In this document: positions 2,767 to 42,006 of the stretch, in pieces
How positions within the stretch are numbered: position 1 is the stretch's first letter
Layout of the letters: each line of letters begins with the position of its first letter
Source: a virus
Lineage: Duplodnaviria > Caudoviricetes
Reading direction: 5' to 3' (one strand)
DNA length: 44,029 nt
Virus record (IMG/VR): IMGVR_UViG_3300033489_000020
Coordinates: 1 to 44,029 of that record
Notes under the pieces: model-generated
What the model saw: only the letters and a program-made list of their open reading frames with translations
Told to the model about the DNA's origin: nothing
Database searches by the model: none
Translations under genes and position numbers: made by a program

Positions 2767-3516
2767 ATGACAGAACGAACCTGGATCAAAATACACAGCG
2801 GTCTTACCAACGACCCAACGCATAGGGAACGTATGGGAATTAGAGTATGGTTGTTCGTGTGGTTAGTTGATCACGCCGACTGGGATACGGGCGTCGTCTA
2901 CAACTACAGCGACAAATGGGCGGGTGAGGAGATGGAGGTATCTCCGAGAACAATCGAGAGACAGCGCCAAGACCTAGAGGGACAAGATTACATATTCTGT
3001 CACGCTGGCTTTCAGTGCCAGCATATCAGGATCATGCGCTGGCGAAACCCGAAACTGGTGAGCCCACCCCAGATCAATGTACCGGGACTGCCTGATACTT
3101 GCGCAGAGTTGCGTACCCATAGTACGCAGAGTTGCGTACCCATCCCTACAGCAAACTGCGTACCCCTACATATAGATCACAATATATCAGAGTCTATCAC
3201 ACAGCCTGTCGTCTTTAACGAAAACGGAAACACATGGATATTCCAGATGTATCTGGACGTATTCAAGGAAGCTGTTAGTGCAGGGGAGCACGACGCTCTC
3301 CGCGACATGGCGCAGGCGTACACGCAGGCCGATGTCAAGGAGGCCATGACTATTACTCATGACAAGCACGCCCGCCAGCGCCTTACGCGTAAGGTTGCAT
3401 ACATGCGCGGCATTCTCCAGGATTGGGCGAAGAACGGCAAGGACGCGCCAACACAGCTGGCTCCGCTACAGCGCGCGCCAACACTCGAAGAGCTTGGGTA
3501 CAAGGTCGTGCGATGA
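2767..3516 (+). CDS. Phage replication initiator (N-terminal wHTH, C-terminal DnaD-like domain)
   Basis: WIKIH N-terminus; YMRGILQDW..NG DnaD-like motif; precedes DnaB; internal repeats. Confidence 0.8.
   Translation: MTERTWIKIHSGLTNDPTHRERMGIRVWLFVWLVDHADWDTGVVYNYSDKWAGEEMEVSPRTIERQRQDLEGQDYIFCHAGFQCQHIRIMRWRNPKLVSPPQINVPGLPDTCAELRTHSTQSCVPIPTANCVPLHIDHNISESITQPVVFNENGNTWIFQMYLDVFKEAVSAGEHDALRDMAQAYTQADVKEAMTITHDKHARQRLTRKVAYMRGILQDWAKNGKDAPTQLAPLQRAPTLEELGYKVVR
3102..3167 (+). repeat. Putative iterons / replication origin inside the initiator gene
   Basis: CGCAGAGTTGCGTACCCAT at 3102-3120 and 3125-3143; degenerate third copy at about 3149-3167. Confidence 0.65.
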
Positions 3517-4928
3517 GCGACAAACAACAGCTAACCCCTCATTCTGTTGAGGCTGAGCAGGCCGTTCTGGGCGCTATCCTGGTCAATCCAGGATCGCTCT
3601 ACGAGGTTAGCGACTTCCTGCGCGCAGACGACTTCTTCGTAGTGCGCAACGGATGGATCTACGATGCGATGCTCAATATCAGCGCTCGCCACGACCCGAT
3701 TGATTACCTAGTGGTGGTTTCCGAGCTTGATCGTGCCGGGAAGCTCAAGGAATGCGGCGGCGCGGCCTACATCCTCAGTCTGATAAACTCCACGCCTTCG
3801 GCGCTCAACATTGATGGTTACGGGCGCATGGTAGAGCGGACGGCAACACTCAGGCGCCTTGAACTGGCAGCTGGCGAGGTTGCAAAGGTATCTCATGCGT
3901 ACGAGATGGAATTGGAAGATGCGCTCAGCGTGGCCAGTGATGCAATCGTTAGCGTTATCGACCGCCACACAGGGACGATAGAGACGGCGCAGACGGTGCG
4001 TGACATTGCGGGCGACGTATCAATGGAGGCTGTTATCTGGGCAGAAGACCCGCGCGACGTGCGCGGCATCGCAACTGGTCTGCACGGTCTAGATACCAGC
4101 ACCGGCGGGTTTGAGGCTGGGCTGTTGTATTACCTGGCTGGCAGGCCTGGTGCTGGCAAGTCAGCGCTGATATCCAGGGCGGCGCGTGGTGTGGCAGAGA
4201 ATGACCATTGCGTCATTGTATATAGTCTAGAGATGACAAAGCGTGCAATGGTGCGCCGCATGGGGATGCAACTGTCAGGCGTAAACGGGACACAGCTCAA
4301 GCAAGGCAGGCTACCAAAGCCGGAGTTGCACAAATTCCTCCAAGCTCTCGACCAGATCGCCAAGCTGCCAATCATCATTGAGAGCCGATCCAACTTATCA
4401 ATCCTTGAGATGGAGGCCATCACGCGTAAGTATTCGCGCGACTACGACATTGGCCTGGTTGTGATCGACACGCTGAATGTGGTGCGCGATCGAGCCGATG
4501 GTCTGTATGAGAAGATGACTAACATCAGCCGCCAGGTCAAAGACTGGGCGCACTCATCGCCGTATGGCATTCTGGCTGCCGTCCAGCTATCTCGCGTCAA
4601 TGAGAAGTCAACCGACAAGCGACCAACACAATCGGCACTCAGGGACAGCGGAGCGCTTGAGCAGGACGCAGACTGGATCGGTGGGCTTCACCGCGAGTTT
4701 GCCTATGCAAAGACTCCGGAAGATCGGGCGCTGCTGGCTGACAGAGAGCATGTAGCAGAACTACTTCCGCTCAAGGTACGGGACGGCGCTTGTGAAATGG
4801 CGGCGGAGCTGTACTGGGATGCATCATGCGTTAATTTCAGCGACATGTACAAGCAAAATGTCAGCCTTGATTACGATAAGCACCCGTTTGTCCTTGGACG
4901 CGATGACGCGGGAGAGGCGTCCTTATGA
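3513..4928 (+). CDS. dnaB: Replicative DNA helicase, DnaB family
   Basis: PHSVEAEQAVLGAIL, Walker A GRPGAGKS, SLEM, QLSR, LRDSGALEQDAD. Confidence 0.95.
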   Translation: MSDKQQLTPHSVEAEQAVLGAILVNPGSLYEVSDFLRADDFFVVRNGWIYDAMLNISARHDPIDYLVVVSELDRAGKLKECGGAAYILSLINSTPSALNIDGYGRMVERTATLRRLELAAGEVAKVSHAYEMELEDALSVASDAIVSVIDRHTGTIETAQTVRDIAGDVSMEAVIWAEDPRDVRGIATGLHGLDTSTGGFEAGLLYYLAGRPGAGKSALISRAARGVAENDHCVIVYSLEMTKRAMVRRMGMQLSGVNGTQLKQGRLPKPELHKFLQALDQIAKLPIIIESRSNLSILEMEAITRKYSRDYDIGLVVIDTLNVVRDRADGLYEKMTNISRQVKDWAHSSPYGILAAVQLSRVNEKSTDKRPTQSALRDSGALEQDADWIGGLHREFAYAKTPEDRALLADREHVAELLPLKVRDGACEMAAELYWDASCVNFSDMYKQNVSLDYDKHPFVLGRDDAGEASL

Positions 4929-6998: not shown

Positions 6999-8165
6999 AT
7001 GAAATTTGGATCGTTGTTTGCTGGCATTGGTGGATTTGACTTAGGACTGGAACGTGCCGGTATGGAGTGCGCCTGGCAGGTCGAGATCGATCCTTATTGC
7101 CAGAAGGTTCTGGCGAAACACTGGCCAGAAGTAGAGAGGTTCAGCGATGTCAGAGAATGCGGAAGTAAGAACCTATCAACAGTTGACCTTATCTGTGGAG
7201 GGTTCCCCTGTCAGCCGTTCAGTGTCGCCGGGAAGCAGCGAGGCGCGGCAGATAACCGTTATCTCTGGCCTGAGATGCTTAGAATTATTGCAGAACTCCA
7301 TCCAGGGTGGGTTATTGGCGAGAACGTTCCTGGCATCGTCAGTATGGCACTCGACGATGTGCTTGCTTCGCTGGAGGGTGAAGGCTACACCTGCGAAACG
7401 TTTGTTATTCCAGCTTGTGCCGTCAACGCGCCGCACCGCAGAGACAGAGTATGGATTGTGGCCCACACCGAATACGTTCGACAGTCTGGCCAACCCCATA
7501 CAGGGCAAGGAAGAAACATTCGAGAATCTACACGCATTGAAACTGAGCAATGCGGTGAGACTGTGGCCGACCCCAGCGGCGATGGATGCCACCCCGATAA
7601 CTGGTGGGGATTTGTACAAAACGGAAACCGGAACGGTGCGGGCGCGGTACGGGAAGGCGAGCAGCAACAGAGGGCTTGGGGCAACGGTAATGTTCCAGAC
7701 TCCGACGGTCCCCAACGGGGGACGATCTCCAAAGGGCGGGATGTCTCCAACGGGGATGACACCAGACGGCAAGAAACGCCAGATGGACTTGGGGTATTTT
7801 GTGAAGATGTTACCTACACCGCGGGCAACGGACGGCAGCCATGGGGGCCGGGTAACTCCGAGAAAAGCTCGGAACGGTGGGAACTTGATCGAGGCGGTAA
7901 GCGCGGATATGTATGCAACCCCATCGGCTCGGGATTGGCGAAGTGGGAAGGCCAGCGAGGAAACTCACGCCCGCAACAGCAGGCCACTGTCGGAGCAGAT
8001 CGGGAAATTGGAGAATGGTGGGCAGTTGAACCCGAACTGGGTAGAGTGGCTCATGGGATACCCCATCGGGTGGACAGACTTAGAGCCCTCGGAAATGCCG
8101 TAGTCCCGCAGGTGGTCGAGTTGATCGGGCGGGCGATTGTGGATGCTGACGCATGTAAGCGATAA
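6999..8165 (+). CDS. C5 cytosine DNA methyltransferase, alpha chain (motifs I-VIII and X)
   Basis: FAGIGG, GGFPCQ, ENV, PHRRDR, LGNAVVP; motif IX not seen in this frame. Confidence 0.92.
   Translation: MKFGSLFAGIGGFDLGLERAGMECAWQVEIDPYCQKVLAKHWPEVERFSDVRECGSKNLSTVDLICGGFPCQPFSVAGKQRGAADNRYLWPEMLRIIAELHPGWVIGENVPGIVSMALDDVLASLEGEGYTCETFVIPACAVNAPHRRDRVWIVAHTEYVRQSGQPHTGQGRNIRESTRIETEQCGETVADPSGDGCHPDNWWGFVQNGNRNGAGAVREGEQQQRAWGNGNVPDSDGPQRGTISKGRDVSNGDDTRRQETPDGLGVFCEDVTYTAGNGRQPWGPGNSEKSSERWELDRGGKRGYVCNPIGSGLAKWEGQRGNSRPQQQATVGADREIGEWWAVEPELGRVAHGIPHRVDRLRALGNAVVPQVVELIGRAIVDADACKR
7147..8103 (+). CDS. Nested +1-frame ORF: putative beta chain of the C5 MTase (TRD repeats plus motif IX)
   Basis: 318 open codons inside the MTase gene; five (W/F/L/Y)xTP repeats; LNPNWVEWLMGYPIGWT motif IX-like end. 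Confidence 0.75.
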   Translation: MSENAEVRTYQQLTLSVEGSPVSRSVSPGSSEARQITVISGLRCLELLQNSIQGGLLARTFLASSVWHSTMCLLRWRVKATPAKRLLFQLVPSTRRTAETEYGLWPTPNTFDSLANPIQGKEETFENLHALKLSNAVRLWPTPAAMDATPITGGDLYKTETGTVRARYGKASSNRGLGATVMFQTPTVPNGGRSPKGGMSPTGMTPDGKKRQMDLGYFVKMLPTPRATDGSHGGRVTPRKARNGGNLIEAVSADMYATPSARDWRSGKASEETHARNSRPLSEQIGKLENGGQLNPNWVEWLMGYPIGWTDLEPSEMP

Positions 8166-11401: not shown

Positions 11402-11827
11402 ATGGCAAAGAGAAAACGCTACACAGACGAATATAGGGCAAGCGCTGTCTTAATGCTGGAGGCGGCAGGTTATCCAGACATAGAGGGCGCGCTTTCGCGT
11501 GTTGCGGATCATCTTGGAATGCATTACCAGACACTCAGTAGGTGGTTCAGAGCAGTGCAAAATCCACCCCCGCACGAACTGGTGCAAGAAAAAAGAGAAG
11601 ACTTCTTGCAGCAGCTCCAGGCCATCAAGGGACTAGCGGCCGGTAAGATTATCGAGCGGATAGAAGAGTACGATCCGCGCGATCTAACCGGGCTGTTGAA
11701 GATTAGCGCGGAGTTGGCCGAGTTACTGACGGGCGGGGCGACGGCAAGAGTCAACTTGACGTGGGAGCAACTCGTTAAAGATGCATCGGGGAAAGAGCCA
11801 AGACTCCTTGACAGTCCCTACGCCTAA
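11402..11827 (+). CDS. Terminase small subunit (HTH)
   Basis: KRYTDEYR...VADHLGMHYQTLSRW HTH directly before TerL. Confidence 0.7.
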   Translation: MAKRKRYTDEYRASAVLMLEAAGYPDIEGALSRVADHLGMHYQTLSRWFRAVQNPPPHELVQEKREDFLQQLQAIKGLAAGKIIERIEEYDPRDLTGLLKISAELAELLTGGATARVNLTWEQLVKDASGKEPRLLDSPYA

Positions 11828-34153: not shown

Positions 34154-34412
34154 GAGAATAGGGCAGCATCGCCGGGCCAGATAACCGCGCACGCAGTCGT
34201 ACAAGATCGGCGATAACGTCTGCGCGATACACTAACTGGTGGCTACGCTTTCGCGGGTGCGTTGACTACGCTGCAAAATGTGTAGGAAAAGCCACTGCCC
34301 TATGCACACTCCACTCCCTACGGGAGACGGAGATCGGGATGCCAGCGGGAAGACAAGTAGGGGGATAACGCCCTTGCTCGTTGGCGTCCTGCATGTTTAG
34401 ACGCTAGCAAAT

Positions 34413-34444
34413 AAAAAACACCCCGCCAGTTATGGCGGGGTGTT
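34413..34444 (-). terminator. Intrinsic terminator between convergent operons
   Basis: AACACCCCGCCA-GTTA-TGGCGGGGTGTT stem; A-tract on the left gives a U-tail on the minus strand. Confidence 0.85.
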
Positions 34445-34445
34445 G

Positions 34446-34613
34446 TCACTTCTTGGCGCCCCATCTTGTCTGGGCGTCCTCTTTGCGTATGATCCATTGG
34501 CTACCAATCTTCCGCGCTGGTATCCACTTATTGAGGCACGCGCGCCGGATCACGCTTACCTCTCGCTTGTACAACTTACTTGCTTCGCTGACCGTGATGT
34601 AATCGTCAAACAT
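34446..34613 (-). CDS. Helix-turn-helix (HTH_17 / excisionase-like) protein, not in ORF track
   Basis: MFDDYITVSEASKLYKREVSVIRRACLNKWIPARKIGSQWII; TAAGGAG RBS. Confidence 0.8.
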   Translation of the reverse strand: MFDDYITVSEASKLYKREVSVIRRACLNKWIPARKIGSQWIIRKEDAQTRWGAKK

Positions 34614-34742
34614 GGCAACTCCTTATTGTCGATAAGATGACCTATCACTCGTGATTGTCCACACCTCCGAGGGGGGGCGAATGCCCCATGCCGGTCTGGC
34701 CGGCTGGCAGCAGGCCATGGATCGGCCTGATGTCATGCCTTG

Positions 34743-34940
34743 CTAGACATAGGCACCTGTCCAATAATCGTAAATCTCGATGAGCATTGCTTCTCCGAAG
34801 CCGTCCGGAAATCCTTCCACGCCAAAGCTCTCGTCGGCGTACTTCTCGGCGAATTCATCCGGCGTGTCGAAGGAGCTGAAGTAGATACCACGATTCCTCA
34901 TCCAACTTATCACGATATTGGCATACATCTCGCTGGTCAT
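34743..34940 (-). CDS. Small acidic hypothetical protein (cassette A)
   Basis: AAGGAAGG RBS; enclosed by IR pair. Confidence 0.75.
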   Translation of the reverse strand: MTSEMYANIVISWMRNRGIYFSSFDTPDEFAEKYADESFGVEGFPDGFGEAMLIEIYDYWTGAYV

Positions 34941-35065
34941 TTTGTGCCTTCCTTGTGGCTATCAGCAAACCGGATTGTCTGCTGCCAGACGTCCAGATCC
35001 GTACTTCGTCCACAACCCTGAGCAGGGGGCATTGCTGCCCGACTGCAAAACTGCTACGAGATTGT

Positions 35066-35371
35066 CTATTCACTTTCGAGAACCACATCAAAATCGCCGT
35101 CGGCAAGTTTTTCGAGTGCCCACATAGGCCCCCAGGTTCCCAGGATATAGAATACATCAGCCGCCAGCCCGCTATTGATTGGGTTGTCCAAATTGCGCTT
35201 GGCAATCTCCGGGATGTATTCCTCAAGCTCAGGAACGCGGTGATCGCTGTTCTTGAACTCAGATTCTGGATCGACTTTTTGATCGTCGATGGAGGGATAG
35301 TTGCTTCGATCAACTTGCACTGTAACCTTTTTGTTTTCTTCGTCGATTAAGATTGTGTATTCGAGTGACAT
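35066..35371 (-). CDS. Small acidic hypothetical protein (cassette B)
   Basis: AGGAG RBS; enclosed by IR pair. Confidence 0.75.
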   Translation of the reverse strand: MSLEYTILIDEENKKVTVQVDRSNYPSIDDQKVDPESEFKNSDHRVPELEEYIPEIAKRNLDNPINSGLAADVFYILGTWGPMWALEKLADGDFDVVLESE

Positions 35372-35466
35372 TGCATCTCTCTCCTGAGTATATAGCGGTT
35401 CTCAACGTCCGCTGCTCAGGGGTGTGGACTGTGCTAGTCTCTGAGTAGGGGGCTATGCCCCGCTAC

Positions 35467-35712
35467 CTAGAAAGGTGCTACCCCATCGCGCCGAGTTTTT
35501 GCATACTCGGTATCGGCTGGGTAGGTTCCATCGTGTACTTGTACATTATTCCAGTGAGTGAGTTCTGTTTGCCTCCATTGTTGTCTGCCGTCGCTGTATG
35601 TCTGCAACCACACTTTAATGGTTATAGTAACAACGCGCTTGTGCTGACCGTATGGGGTTTGTTCAGTCTCCTCTGTCTTAACGTTCCAAGTACCGGCGAT
35701 TAGGTTTCCCAT
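35467..35712 (-). CDS. Small hypothetical protein (cassette C)
   Basis: AAGGAG RBS before MGNLIAG; enclosed by perfect 18-bp IR. Confidence 0.75.
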   Translation of the reverse strand: MGNLIAGTWNVKTEETEQTPYGQHKRVVTITIKVWLQTYSDGRQQWRQTELTHWNNVQVHDGTYPADTEYAKTRRDGVAPF

Positions 35713-35803
35713 TGTAGTCTCCTTGAGTGGTGTGTGTAGCAAGTCCGCTACTCAGAGACTAGCACTGTGCTGAACAATGTAGGCGGCAAGTGCCGCCGGG
35801 GTG

Positions 35804-36052
35804 TTAGTGAACCAAAACGTATGTTGTTTTGAACTCACCTCCGACTGCGTCGGCTACCTTTAGCAGCGCATCGCTGTCGGCTATCATCTTTGAAATGATT
35901 GGCTCAGAAGTCATGCTCTGTCGCGCGTTATCTGATATACCGCTGTCGTTAAGAAAGACCTCGATGCGACCCAGGCCCATATTCTGAATGTTGTAATCCG
36001 ATACTTTAAGCCCAGCGTCTTTGATTGCTTTCCTTACTTCGTTTGTAGTCAT
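35804..36052 (-). CDS. Small hypothetical protein (cassette D)
   Basis: CAGGAG RBS before MTTNEV; enclosed by 26-bp IR. Confidence 0.75.
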   Translation of the reverse strand: MTTNEVRKAIKDAGLKVSDYNIQNMGLGRIEVFLNDSGISDNARQSMTSEPIISKMIADSDALLKVADAVGGEFKTTYVLVH

Positions 36053-36202
36053 TGTGTATCTCCTGTTTATTATTGGCTTCACTTGTCGTCTACATTGTCC
36101 AGCACTTGCGAAGTGCCCCTTCGCTTGTTTTCTCGCCATTTGGTGTGGGGCGGCCACCCCGGTTCTGCTTGCTCTTATTTGTTTCTCTCAACTTATAAAT
36201 AC

Positions 36203-36231
36203 AGTATACACGACTTCGTGCATAATGTCAA
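36203..36231 (-). promoter_or_regulatory. Strong leftward sigma70 promoter TTGACA-N17-TATACT driving the cassette array
   Basis: Near-perfect consensus on the minus strand. Confidence 0.85.
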
Positions 36232-36313
36232 TAGGCAAACACAACAAAAAGATAACAGTTTTAGAACGGGATTAGAACGGATATTACCCAATATCATAAC
36301 CTGCTTTTGCTCA

Positions 36314-36342
36314 TTGACATTCAGGACGTGATCGCTTATAAT
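36314..36342 (+). promoter_or_regulatory. Rightward consensus promoter TTGACA-N17-TATAAT
   Basis: Perfect consensus. Confidence 0.9.
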
Positions 36343-36348
36343 GGTAAG

Positions 36349-36453
36349 TGACGCCATAGCTTGTTCGTACCCTCTCGGGAAGCCTGGGCCTCACTAACGA
36401 ACAGCGATAGTGGCGTCAAGGCGCAGGTTTCCCGAGAGGGTTTTTGTTAGGAG
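36349..36453 (+). promoter_or_regulatory. Structured 5' leader (hairpin whose loop pairs with downstream sequence)
   Basis: 36349-36368 pairs with 36397-36418; 36369-36391 pairs with 36419-36441; then TTTT and TAGGAG. Confidence 0.65.
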
Positions 36454-36458
36454 AATGC

Positions 36459-37277
36459 ATGAGACAGTTATCAATATTTGAGCCGCAGTTTGACGACCGC
36501 ATCCGACGCGAAGAGAACGCAATGAATGCCAATGAGATGGCAAACTTGTTCTTTGAAATCGCTGGCGTTTCCTCGGACTTATGTATCGACGAAACAGAAA
36601 TAGCACAATGGGACAAAAAACGTTTCGAGCTTCTTGACGCCGACAATTTCGGGCGAGACATGAGTCATCTGATATTTTGTAAAGCGGGCGAGTACAACAT
36701 GCTTATTGCTCGCGTTTTTGCATATTTCATAGTGAGACTGATACACAATCTATGCATTCTTGAGCAAACAAGTCACGCATCTTTTTCCAAGATGTTGGAA
36801 AACATGAATGAATGGATGCTTGGAGGTGGCAACAAGTACGAAGCTGTCATGTGTTGTATTCACCTGGCTAGATGGACTCTACAAGTTGAGCACATTACAT
36901 CTGTGCAGATGTTCGACAACCACAACGTGATAAACAACAATCAAGAATATTCATACTTTCTGCTATGCCCATCTCAGAACACGATTAAGATTGGGAAGAG
37001 CATTAACCCAAAAACAAGAATAGGCAGCATTCAAGCACAATCCCCGGCGGCTGTGTTTTGCATATCTATTTGCAAGACACCTGAAAAAGAACTTCACGCA
37101 GCATTCAAACAATATCGTCGATCAGGATCTGAATGGTTCGAGGCCGATCAATCTATTGTTGCCTACGCGCTCGAACATTGTGTCTATCAGGATGTGCTTG
37201 ATCTCCTCGGCATCGACGTGGTAACAGGCCGACGCCTGCTCGATTCAACCGACGCGATTCGGGGGTGGATGCAATGA
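36459..37277 (+). CDS. Protein with C-terminal T5orf172 / GIY-YIG-like domain
   Basis: YSYFL...IKIGKSINPKTR...EKELHAAF...SEWF; N-terminal QLSIF. Confidence 0.75.
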   Translation: MRQLSIFEPQFDDRIRREENAMNANEMANLFFEIAGVSSDLCIDETEIAQWDKKRFELLDADNFGRDMSHLIFCKAGEYNMLIARVFAYFIVRLIHNLCILEQTSHASFSKMLENMNEWMLGGGNKYEAVMCCIHLARWTLQVEHITSVQMFDNHNVINNNQEYSYFLLCPSQNTIKIGKSINPKTRIGSIQAQSPAAVFCISICKTPEKELHAAFKQYRRSGSEWFEADQSIVAYALEHCVYQDVLDLLGIDVVTGRRLLDSTDAIRGWMQ

Positions 37278-38317
37278 CCGTGCAACTGCATCTCGGCGAT
37301 TGCCTGGAGTTCATGCGCGGCCTGCCGGATGGGTGCGTCGACTGCGTGTTTGTCGATTTGCCATACTTCGAGATTGCTCCTTGCGAATGGGATAAGCAGT
37401 GGGAAAACAGAGACGCTTATCTTGACTGGGTATGTTCGCTTGCAGAGCAGTGGAAGCGTATCACAAAGACAAACAGCAGTGTGTTTGTGTTCTGTGACGA
37501 GAAAACCGAGGCGTATTTGCAGGTAAGACTTGACGCCTACTTTTTGCTGCTTAATAAGATCGTATGGTTCAAACCTAACGCTCTACCGCAGATAAACGCG
37601 CATCTGTTACGCACGTTTGCGCCTATGACCGAGCGTGCGCTTTTCTATGCTTCCTATAATGACCGATGCGAGTGGGATACCACCGGGTGGCAGTCGGTGA
37701 AGCTAGACCCCGACAACTTCAAACCTCTGCGTGATTACTTCCGTGAATATCAAGAGGCTATCGGCCTCAACATCAAACAGATCAACGCCAGGCTAGGCCA
37801 CAGAAAAGCAGAGCACGCTTTCTACTGGGGCACTACGCAGTGGGACTTGCCCACACAGGAAACCTACGATGAACTGGAAAAGCTGCCGTCCAATCACGGA
37901 TTTGTGCGGCGCGAGTATGAAGACCTGCGGCGCGAGTATGAAGACCTGCGGCGCGAGTATGAAGACCTGCGGCGTCCATTCAACGCAGACGGAGAGACGC
38001 TTGACGTTATTAGCTGGCCGATAATCAACAGTAGCGAAAACACAGATCACCCCACAACCAAGCCACTGGGATTATGCAAGCGCATCTTGTCAGTAATCAC
38101 CAAGGATGGAAATACCATTCTTGATTGTTGCATGGGTAGCGGCACCACCGGCGTCGCTGCCGTCCAGCTCGGGCGGAACTTCATCGGCGTGGAAATTGAT
38201 GAAACCTATTTCAAGATCGCAGAGCGGCGTATCCGCGAGGCGGAAGCACAGCCCCCGCTATTCGTGCTCGACACCCCGCGCGCGCAACAGTTGACGCTAG
38301 AGGAGGCGCAATCGTGA
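37274..38317 (+). CDS. N6-A/N4-C DNA methyltransferase (beta class)
   Basis: GDCLE, DLPY, HPTTKP, DCCMGSGTTG. Confidence 0.92.
   Translation: MTVQLHLGDCLEFMRGLPDGCVDCVFVDLPYFEIAPCEWDKQWENRDAYLDWVCSLAEQWKRITKTNSSVFVFCDEKTEAYLQVRLDAYFLLLNKIVWFKPNALPQINAHLLRTFAPMTERALFYASYNDRCEWDTTGWQSVKLDPDNFKPLRDYFREYQEAIGLNIKQINARLGHRKAEHAFYWGTTQWDLPTQETYDELEKLPSNHGFVRREYEDLRREYEDLRREYEDLRRPFNADGETLDVISWPIINSSENTDHPTTKPLGLCKRILSVITKDGNTILDCCMGSGTTGVAAVQLGRNFIGVEIDETYFKIAERRIREAEAQPPLFVLDTPRAQQLTLEEAQS
37905..37974 (+). repeat. 21-bp tandem repeat (3.3 copies) encoding LRREYED
   Basis: TGCGGCGCGAGTATGAAGACC three times plus TGCGGCG. Confidence 0.95.
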
Positions 38318-40757: not shown

Positions 40758-40943
40758 ATGTACACAATACCGGAAGCCGCCAAGTTGATGGGCATCACTC
40801 GCCAGCGATTGCACCTCCTGGTGCAGCATGGACGAGTCAGGGCATATCGAATTGGAAGAGTTTGGATGATCCCATGTGACGCAATAGGTCACATACTCCC
40901 CGCTGGCCGCCCCGCTGGCCGCCCCAGGAAACACAAAAGGTAG
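40758..40943 (+). CDS. HTH_17 / excisionase-like DNA-binding protein with GRP (AT-hook-like) tail
   Basis: YTIPEAAKLMGITRQRL..LV..GRV.AYRIGRVWMI...GRPAGRPRK; start uncertain. Confidence 0.8.
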   Translation: MYTIPEAAKLMGITRQRLHLLVQHGRVRAYRIGRVWMIPCDAIGHILPAGRPAGRPRKHKR

Positions 40944-40965: not shown

Positions 40966-40994
40966 TTGACGTGGCCAGCGTTGTGTGCTATTAT
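40966..40994 (+). promoter_or_regulatory. Sigma70 promoter TTGACG-N17-TATTAT with extended -10
   Basis: Consensus and spacing read directly. Confidence 0.75.
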
Positions 40995-41744: not shown

Positions 41745-42006
41745 GCAGGTGCAGCCACATCAACACGCGGTGATGTGGCTGCATGTGCCCATGACGGGCA
41801 GATCGCAAGACCTACTATCTGGAGGCCAAATGTGCAAGGAAGCGCGGAGATTTGTGATTTGGGCTGGTGGGTATGTAGAGACGACCCGCAACCTGAGAGA
41901 CGCACTACGTAGATCGCGGATTGATGGCGGGTTGGCGGTAGAAGACGAAGGGCCACGCGGCAAGAAGCGCATGGCGGCCAGCGGTGAAGATGTTAGTAGA
42001 CGGTAG
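41737..42006 (+). CDS. Hypothetical protein
   Basis: ORF fills the operon; start uncertain. Confidence 0.4.
   Translation: MHEQVQPHQHAVMWLHVPMTGRSQDLLSGGQMCKEARRFVIWAGGYVETTRNLRDALRRSRIDGGLAVEDEGPRGKKRMAASGEDVSRR

Follow-up and report, generated by a model that had tools for sequence, protein, structure and literature searches.

A hypervariable early phage operon of gene slots whose conserved flanks are complementary across each gene

The IMG/VR virus record IMGVR_UViG_3300033489_000020 carries a short leftward operon in which four small open reading frames (ORFs) are each enclosed by their own inverted repeat. The whole record was analysed and is referred to below as the window; it comprises 44,029 bases, is classed as linear and has an estimated completeness of 57%. 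Its gene set, including a DnaB-like helicase, terminase, portal, tape measure and several DNA methylases, is that of a tailed phage, an uncultivated one from soil, and it also encodes an Erf annealing protein and a VRR-NUC nuclease. Nearly all genes run rightward, leaving the four-ORF array as a short leftward operon.

All parts of this operon lie on the minus strand. It is headed by a sigma-70-type promoter (TTGACA-17-TATACT, 36203..36231) which was predicted in the initial annotation and matches the consensus at 11 of 12 positions, followed by a leader containing two short GC hairpins (36106..36200). The units behind it, named D, C, B and A from the promoter onwards, share one order of parts on the coding strand: a 5′ arm starting GTNC, a local hairpin, a Shine–Dalgarno (SD) sequence, the ATG, the ORF and its stop, a GC-rich hairpin, and a 3′ arm ending GNAC. 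Unit D consists of a 5′ arm starting GTGC (36075..36105), an ORF of 82 residues with the SD sequence AGGAG (35804..36052), and a 3′ module (35767..35797) whose GC hairpin (35797-35782) overlaps the arm (35792-35767, ending GCAC). A single junction base, the A at 35766, is followed by the 5′ arm of C (core 35765-35748, starting GTGC) and the start of its local hairpin, together spanning 35742..35766; then come ORF C, of 81 residues with the SD sequence AAGGAG (35467..35712), and a 3′ module (35431..35461) made up of a hairpin (35461-35449) and an arm ending GCAC (35448-35431) which matches its 5′ partner at 18 of 18 positions. The next junction base, again an A (35430), opens the 5′ module of B (35378..35430), with an arm starting GTCC (35429-35412), a local hairpin and the SD sequence. 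ORF B encodes an acidic protein of 101 residues (pI 4.2; 35066..35371), and its 3′ module (35008..35040) contains a hairpin (35040-35027) and an arm ending GGAC that pairs at 17 of 18 positions (35025-35008). Unit A, reached through a GAA linker (35007-35005), has a 5′ arm starting GTAC (34974..35004), an ORF for another acidic protein (65 residues, pI 4.05; 34743..34940) and a 3′ arm (34693..34718). The junctions therefore read GCAC-A-GTGC, GCAC-A-GTCC and GGAC-GAA-GTAC on the coding strand, exactly as annotated, and the local hairpins described inside the arms are present.

Cassette A is followed by an element that the initial annotation did not contain, namely a 3′ module with no partner and no ORF of its own (34657..34687; hairpin 34687-34674, arm 34673-34657, ending GGAC). 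We refer to it as X-type, and it can pair with the 5′ arm of B (−30.4 kcal/mol). The last gene (34446..34613) encodes a 55-residue DNA-binding protein of the HTH_17 (PF12728)/excisionase family, conserved at 81–85% in relatives and referred to below as the helix-turn-helix (HTH) protein. An intrinsic terminator with a 12-bp stem and a T run (34417..34444) closes the operon and is its sole terminator-like site; the hairpins that follow the stop codons are GC-rich without T runs. A promoter scan inside the array gave a best match of 9 of 12 positions, with none of at least 10 of 12 at the junctions. On the transcribed strand each ORF, SD sequence included, falls between its arms, which are 22–42 nucleotides (nt) 5′ of the ATG and 6–24 nt past the stop. 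ORFs A–D look real, with an SD sequence 5–9 nt ahead of each ATG. Rfam gave no match inside the array, and there is no rRNA in the window.

The four inverted repeats lie where they had been annotated and each extends slightly further. Their arms are 35767-35797/36075-36105 for D (31 nt, 84%), 35428-35454/35742-35768 for C (27 nt, 89%, around an 18/18 core at 35431-35448/35748-35765), 35008-35034/35403-35429 for B (27 nt, 85%) and 34695-34718/34974-34997 for A (24 nt, 83%). A scan of the whole window for arms 250–370 nt apart with complementarity of at least 83% returned D, C, B and A as the top four, which are contiguous. We also scored the ungapped complementarity between the 110 nt before and the 110 nt after each ORF, obtaining 17 for D, 18 for C, 15 for B and 13 for A, and 7 for the HTH gene, against shuffle maxima of 10–12 (300 shuffles each). 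The 69 crude ORFs of the window had a median score of 6 and a 95th percentile of 9, a comparison in which only C represents the array, the crude calls having mis-set the limits of D, B and A. Among 217 crude ORFs from 27 unrelated loci the maximum was 12 and none reached 13. A chance origin of the inverted repeats is ruled out, because the array scores of 13–18 exceed those of both the shuffles and these control ORFs.

All modules belong to a single family whose centres vary, with the patterns 5′ GTNC....C.CTGAG.AG and 3′ CT.CTCAG.G....GNAC. C and B follow GTNCNNNNCNCTGAGNAGCGGAC in their 5′ modules and GCCCCCTNCTCAGNGNNNNGNAC in their 3′ modules, whereas those of D and A are more distant. The shared CTGAG/CTCAG would permit weak pairing of any 3′ arm with the next 5′ arm, specificity being given by the variable centres. 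The best predicted partner of every 5′ arm is its own 3′ arm, with duplex energies of −39.5 (D5-D3), −42.4 (C5-C3), −41.5 (B5-B3) and −33.4 kcal/mol (A5-A3). The D 5′ arm reaches −7.8 to −13.3 kcal/mol with other partners and the C 5′ arm −17.6 to −25.9 kcal/mol, and the non-cognate arm pairs of D, C and A together span −7.8 to −25.9 kcal/mol. Across the three junctions the arms pair at −12.8 to −17.6 kcal/mol only, and the arms of C and B, which match their own partners at 17–18 of 18 positions, match the neighbour across the junction at about 11 of 18. The weakness of this pairing implies that complementarity has been selected or inherited across the gene and not across the junction. A palindrome local to the junction was considered as the functional unit and rejected, given the −33 to −42 kcal/mol available across the genes.

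Folding predictions point the same way for most of the array. When the cassettes were folded singly, all four were closed by their own arms in the minimum free energy and centroid structures alike, with z-scores of −5.3 (D), −6.8 (C), −4.6 (B) and −3.0 (A); of 100 shuffles each, 0, 0, 0 and 1, respectively, folded equally well. The predicted fold of the 1791-nt transcript retains three of the four closing helices, with 27 bp for D (as in D folded alone), 14 bp for C and 18+10 bp for B.

Seven soil-metagenome DNA runs from five studies contain all or part of the stretch, and we compared gene content by placing on it the contigs of five of them (X1, X2, X4, X6 and X7). In run X1 the stretch is recovered with zero differences as the pieces 34519-34985, 35017-35429, 35439-35800, 35771-36109 and 36108 onward, so that each ORF shares one contig with one whole arm (for A, the 3′ arm) and part of the other. 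Matching but shorter pieces were found in X2, which belongs to another study. The contig breaks fall at the modules, and runs from four studies branch there. Sequencing depth in X1 is 213 at the C/B junction arms versus 21 in ORFs B and C, with the same trend in X4 (about 21 versus 2) and X2 (9–21 versus 4).

Within 35372-35812 there are 16 loose contig ends, of which 15 are listed, and all 15 lie at module limits. Eleven of them are at the edge of the module that faces the ORF: 35378 (X1, X2, X4), 35467/35468 (X1, X2, X4), 35710/35717/35718 (X7, X2, X4) and 35800 (X1, X4). Arm–arm junctions account for three more, which fall on the junction or no more than 3 nt away from it (35430 in X1 and X4, 35763 in X4). 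A single end, at 35423 in X1, falls within an arm and is of the type found in the relative L019 described below, and none of the 15 lies deeper inside ORF C, the one ORF fully covered. The 5′ module of C is followed by three other ORFs in X2, X4 and X7, at least three other sequences join the 5′ module of B at 35378, and another ORF is joined to the 3′ module of D at 35800 in X1 and X4. The sequences behind the B-type and C-type 5′ modules vary by run, and several read as new ORF starts after a retained SD sequence. Elsewhere there are joints by which ORF A (34730 to 34956) and ORF D (35800 to 36080) are bypassed or exchanged within their arms; among the listed joints in the run contigs, none removes a whole arm-to-arm unit at the junction bases.

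The initial annotation offered, as one of two readings of this locus, a mobile and shuffling gene-cassette system, for which it expected breakpoints exactly at the GNAC/GTNC junctions. Gene content does vary at these boundaries, both in contigs of four studies and in the relatives described below, and three of the 15 listed ends are at the junction or within 3 nt of it. The changing unit, however, is mostly the ORF alone, 11 of the 15 ends being at ORF edges, and the idea of private arms that travel with each gene fails because the same 5′ module precedes several different ORFs. Since breakpoints lie mostly at ORF edges and one module serves several ORFs, the arms are shared, conserved scaffolds, or slots, and the unit of exchange is mostly the ORF. 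Some recombination has also taken place within junctions, between their 3′ and 5′ halves.

Relatives of the array were found in metagenome contigs only. No match to the 2.1-kb region was returned by blastn against phage records, scans of viral contigs with single proteins (B and the T5orf172 protein encoded to the right of the array) found no relative, nor did a scan with the C alignment, and nothing in phage records, viral contigs or species genomes reached the array region. Matches to the HTH alignment in viral contigs (6 loci, 46–50% over 22–26 residues) and in genomes (9 loci, mostly 14 residues) were weak and partial and are not counted as relatives; a portal protein search gave four short fragments only, none extending to the array; and five matches to the module motif pattern in viral contigs had neither hairpin nor array and were taken as chance. 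A scan of metagenome contigs with an alignment of HTH relatives returned the window itself (L016) and the contigs of four relatives (L017–L020).

L019 is 9.3 kb long and, as read by eye, identical to L018 over the array. Compared with the window (34300-36600, 2.3 kb), L019 and L018 share four matching blocks only. In order, the first is 23 nt at the start of the first rightward gene, the second is 60 nt of the C/B junction (35468-35409, 92%), kept while both neighbouring ORFs differ, the third comprises the last 3′ module, the HTH gene and the terminator (34687-34410, 84%), and the fourth is 37 nt beyond these. In place of B and A these contigs have a single ORF of 70 residues, X, whose cassette has a B-type 5′ arm and, as its 3′ module, the very one left partnerless in the window. 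This comparison suggests that, in the window, B plus A took the place of X within an older slot. By our reading of a few paralogous modules, B-type and X-type arms differ at three positions that are altered on both sides with the pair kept. Upstream in L019 a 36-codon ORF leads into a C-type 3′ module. The last module is the same in L017, where X has diverged, and L020 starts with a C-type 3′ arm that directly abuts the HTH leader, exactly at the arm end. Across these relatives gene content changes while junction sequences persist.

The locus is thus a hypervariable early operon of slots, in which conserved flanks are complementary across each gene. What is new here is that relatives and soil populations keep the arm, hairpin and SD modules and have different ORFs between them. 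The cargo is poorly related to known proteins: no Pfam, PHROG or NCBIfam family was found for ORFs A–D and no NCBIfam match for X, and ORF B has no relative among 5.8 billion proteins and no usable ESM Atlas match. ORF C has an 81-residue homologue, P0007, with 60% identity and a conserved C-terminal half, and ORF D has three distant relatives. The closest of these, P0009, is a protein of 825 residues that matches D in five separate stretches, so D may be a single copy of a repeat domain.

By analogy with anti-defence operons of the acr-aca type, the cargo is probably made up of early accessory genes for host takeover or anti-defence. Those operons, too, combine a strong early promoter with several small orphan ORFs unrelated to each other and end in a small HTH gene (PMC9410906; PMC6765145). 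The likeness is one of layout only, in the promoter, the small acidic or orphan ORFs and the terminal HTH gene; the terminal protein here has an HTH_17/excisionase-like HTH, a sequence search of solved structures in the PDB gave no match, and gene-spanning repeats do not figure in the acr-aca description.

We hold with moderate confidence that the closing stems act at the RNA level, by RNase III-type excision or by stabilisation and insulation without cleavage, and that the same modules also serve for homologous ORF exchange. On the basis of the predicted folds, the arms are likely to pair in the transcript and to close each cistron into its own stem-loop. The resulting stems of 18–27 bp would be double-stranded RNA targets of host RNase III, or at least structural insulators, and each cistron would become an end-paired message, separately stable and separately folded regardless of its neighbours. 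The GC hairpins after the stops look like 3′ stabilisers. In a phage that encodes Erf and VRR-NUC, conservation of the modules could also let general homologous recombination swap ORFs between relatives that infect the same cell, so that the operon would be a plug-in rack for early accessory genes. The cognate pairing across each gene is not something that homologous recombination requires or accounts for, and we count this pairing in favour of a role in RNA. On the same side we count the position of the arms on the transcribed strand, outside both ORF and SD sequence, and a long hairpin of 23–24 bp that the rightward leaders of the window and of L019 contain with differing sequences.

The excision mode would be that by which ORF-bearing intervening sequences and the 16S and 23S rRNAs are released from their precursors. 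RNase III cuts the large stems flanking 16S and 23S rRNA (PMC6582327), and the Coxiella 23S intervening sequence, of 428–444 nt with an ORF and a 28-bp terminal-repeat stem, is excised in vitro by both Coxiella and E. coli RNase III (PMC4990558). Such intervening sequences resemble our units in being ORF-bearing inserts of 300–450 nt closed by terminal repeats (28 bp in Coxiella, 14–27 bp as predicted here) through a stem of about two helical turns, which here is predicted for four of four cassettes singly and three of four in the whole transcript. They differ in that our units are cistrons translated from a phage mRNA, arranged as a tandem of four at distances of 1–3 nt, for which cleavage is inferred, and in that the ORFs are unrelated orphans without S23p, A–D and X giving no NCBIfam match, in a window without rRNA. 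The initial annotation had offered as its alternative an RNA-level system that cuts the transcript into end-paired mRNAs; this would fit the anatomy, with the ORF-bearing intervening sequences of rRNA as the precedent, whereas we saw no indication of the circular RNA that it also mentioned.

Early transcripts of phage T7 are divided by RNase III at local hairpins between the genes, and the processed ends stabilise the messages. The likeness is that of an early polycistronic phage transcript divided between genes by double-stranded RNA elements, whereas the helix here is formed from sequences on either side of a gene. Pairing between the 5′ and 3′ ends also closes the hok mRNA and controls its translation; unlike hok, the ORFs here are not hydrophobic toxins and no antisense RNA was seen. 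Full-text searches of open-access papers turned up no account of stems that close individual genes in a phage mRNA operon.

Several observations weigh against a role in RNA. By our own count the arm mismatches comprise 3 G-U and 5 A-C, so there is no transcribed-strand bias and no sign of selection on the sense strand. The stem of cassette A, whose 3′ arm closes A folded alone, is missing from the whole-transcript fold. Of the 21 inverted pairs found in L019, none supplies a 5′ partner for its C-type 3′ module, and in X the arms match at just 14 of 18 positions, with one further wobble pair. The single polymorphic arm position (8) is crossed, with C/T in the window and A/G in L019, such that a swap of partners would restore two Watson–Crick pairs. 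The 5′ modules are copies of the 3′ modules in the opposite orientation, and this extends to the hairpin bases (42 nt at 71% in L019); duplication at the DNA level could have produced such copies without any role in RNA. The order of slots in the window itself depends on metagenome assembly through shared modules. The C and D arms are invariant in the contigs, with three differences listed in 441 nt, and so give no orthologous covariation for or against RNA pairing.

Some of these observations lend weight to a purely DNA-level account, which we regard as possible though distinctly less probable than a role in RNA. Here the modules would be recombination linkers only, and the inverted repeats a by-product of one palindromic element present in both orientations. 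The inverted-copy modules, the absence of wobble asymmetry and the crossed alleles at position 8 all suit this account, as do breakpoints at module limits in four studies, the junction unit kept between the window and L019 while both adjacent ORFs differ, and the encoded Erf and VRR-NUC proteins. It also has a precedent in the promoter-early stem-loops (PeSLs) of T4-type phages, which are conserved intergenic modules of about 100 bp that extend from a stop codon to the next SD sequence and start (PMC2839356; PMC4122927). As in our operon, PeSLs lie on either side of ORFans within variable early regions, and the points at which genes are gained, lost or replaced coincide with the modules. Each PeSL has its own sigma-70 promoter and a local terminator stem-loop and acts as a direct repeat, whereas here one promoter serves the array, no T run follows the hairpins, and each gene has inverted flanks that pair across it. 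Against the linker account, recombination requires direct and not inverted homology, and the account leaves unexplained both the match of 17–18 of 18 positions between own partners in C and B, against about 11 of 18 across the junction, and the continued complementarity of the variable arm centres across the gene. We prefer stems that work in RNA, with ORF exchange through the modules much as in PeSLs.

True mobility of arm–ORF–arm units, as first proposed for this array, now appears improbable. Such cassettes would be moved by an enzyme acting in trans, specific for structure or ends in the manner of integrons, of miniature inverted-repeat transposable elements (MITEs) and other terminal inverted repeat (TIR) elements, or of IS200 and repetitive extragenic palindromic (REP) elements, with a crossover at GNAC/GTNC and a circle that forms a perfect palindrome. 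The tandem array behind one promoter, the spacing of 1–3 nt, the conserved GT..AC ends and the subterminal hairpins at both ends all suit such an origin, as do the three listed loose ends at or near the arm–arm junction and the precise arm end in L020. Against this, the 11 ends at ORF edges inside the arms and the single 5′ module serving several ORFs mean that arms do not travel with genes, no listed joint skips from junction to junction, pairing across the junction is weak without any attC-type local site, and no target duplication can be read. The initial annotation saw no recombinase in the window, and scans of its ORFs with Pfam and PHROGs agree, finding no tyrosine or serine recombinase and no DDE or HUH transposase; these scans covered many but not all small ORFs of a record that is estimated to be 57% complete. 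The only transposase-named match is HTH_Tnp_1, in a likely small-terminase ORF (11402-11824) that precedes the terminase.

Of the known mobile systems, integrons and REP/RAYT elements each fail to fit in a defining feature, as TIR elements probably do; all three may still serve as working modes if an enzyme acts in trans. With integron arrays the operon shares tandem promoterless single-gene cassettes behind one upstream promoter (here 11 of 12 matches), a structure more conserved than its sequence, and variable cargo. It differs from them in that no IntI-type integrase family was found in the ORFs scanned, in the lack of a local attC with R and L boxes, in ends that are GNAC/GTNC and not RYYYAAC/GTTRRRY, and in a repeat that spans the gene, with most breakpoints at ORF edges and not at one crossover point. 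Membership of the integrons is rejected on the lack of an attC-type site and of an integrase among the ORFs scanned. For TIR transposons and MITEs, terminal inverted repeats are present and no transposase catalytic domain was found in the ORFs scanned; a target-site duplication would be unreadable because the units abut. Hairpins inside both ends and GTNC ends are present as in IS200/IS605 and REP/RAYT elements, with no Y1_Tnp or RAYT family match in the ORFs scanned. REP elements are intergenic palindromic units that occur in both orientations and stabilise the upstream mRNA; unlike these and the bacterial interspersed mosaic elements (BIMEs) they form, the array has no RAYT transposase and no GTAG-type REP consensus. 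A stronger form of mobility, in which the gene leaves as a circle and re-enters in mid-junction through a structure-reading enzyme in trans, which would make the array a phage-borne relation of the integron that lacks an integrase and uses its ends as RNA processing stems as well, is very unlikely.

We give equally little credence to a translational switch as the main function, in which the 5′ arm pairs with the SD region until displaced by the 3′ arm, allowing translation only once the cistron is fully transcribed: the 5′ arms of C and B are complementary to the SD region, part of which the 3′ arm repeats, and the predicted unpaired probability of the SD sequence rises when the last 20 nt are present in B (0.21 to 0.55) and less so in C (0.50 to 0.65) and D (0.76 to 0.87), but these are predictions only, A (0.73 to 0.69) and X (0.37 to 0.38) show no such rise, and the arms of D and A have no SD complementarity.

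If the stems do work in RNA, the operon would be a natural counterpart of the standard insulated expression slot that synthetic biology builds by hand. Any small early gene could be plugged in without altering the folding, stability or translation of itself or its neighbours, and the RNase III excision mode of rRNA and intervening sequences would be extended to translated messages. Whatever the mechanism, the conserved modules offer a handle with which to retrieve from soil metagenomes a large pool of fast-changing early phage genes, likely to act in host takeover or anti-defence.

To the right of the array, a divergent promoter on the plus strand (36314-36342) matches the consensus at 12 of 12 positions. 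The two divergent promoters form an imperfect 38-nt inverted repeat (36202-36343, 71%), possibly a shared operator region for the terminal HTH protein. The rightward leader contains a local hairpin just before the first gene (36369-36441, plus strand), with 23-nt arms that are 91% complementary and a 27-nt loop, and L019 has a leader hairpin of the same size but another sequence in the same place (4115-4190; 24 nt, 88%). By its appearance this hairpin would be a stem for processing or regulation of the leader. The first rightward gene itself (36444-37277 on the plus strand of the window, 3147-4112 on the minus strand of L019) is a mosaic, whose first residues and a C-terminal stretch are common to both and whose middle differs, being a T5orf172/MUG113 (GIY-YIG-like) domain in the window and another sequence in L019.

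Further features were noted elsewhere in the window. It encodes at least three DNA methylases: an N6/N4 methylase with an internal threefold REYEDLR repeat (37265-38317, plus strand), an MT-A70 protein (1435-2481) and a C5 methylase (6999-8165). A 69-nt match to the Rfam tmRNA model RF00023 (42015-42083, plus strand; 48.6 bits, gathering score 47; model ends 1-374) covers the tRNA-like ends only, and ARAGORN found no tmRNA or tRNA in the window; the element could be a mini tRNA-like element or the remnant of an attachment site in ssrA, no integrase being seen. At 40891-40925 (plus strand) a GC-rich 14-mer occurs as a tandem duplicate ahead of a promoter-like site near 40967. A 21-nt inverted repeat (86%) has the first copy as its left arm and, 1061 nt downstream, a right arm at 41973-41993; this repeat flanks two or three small ORFs in the rightward early region.

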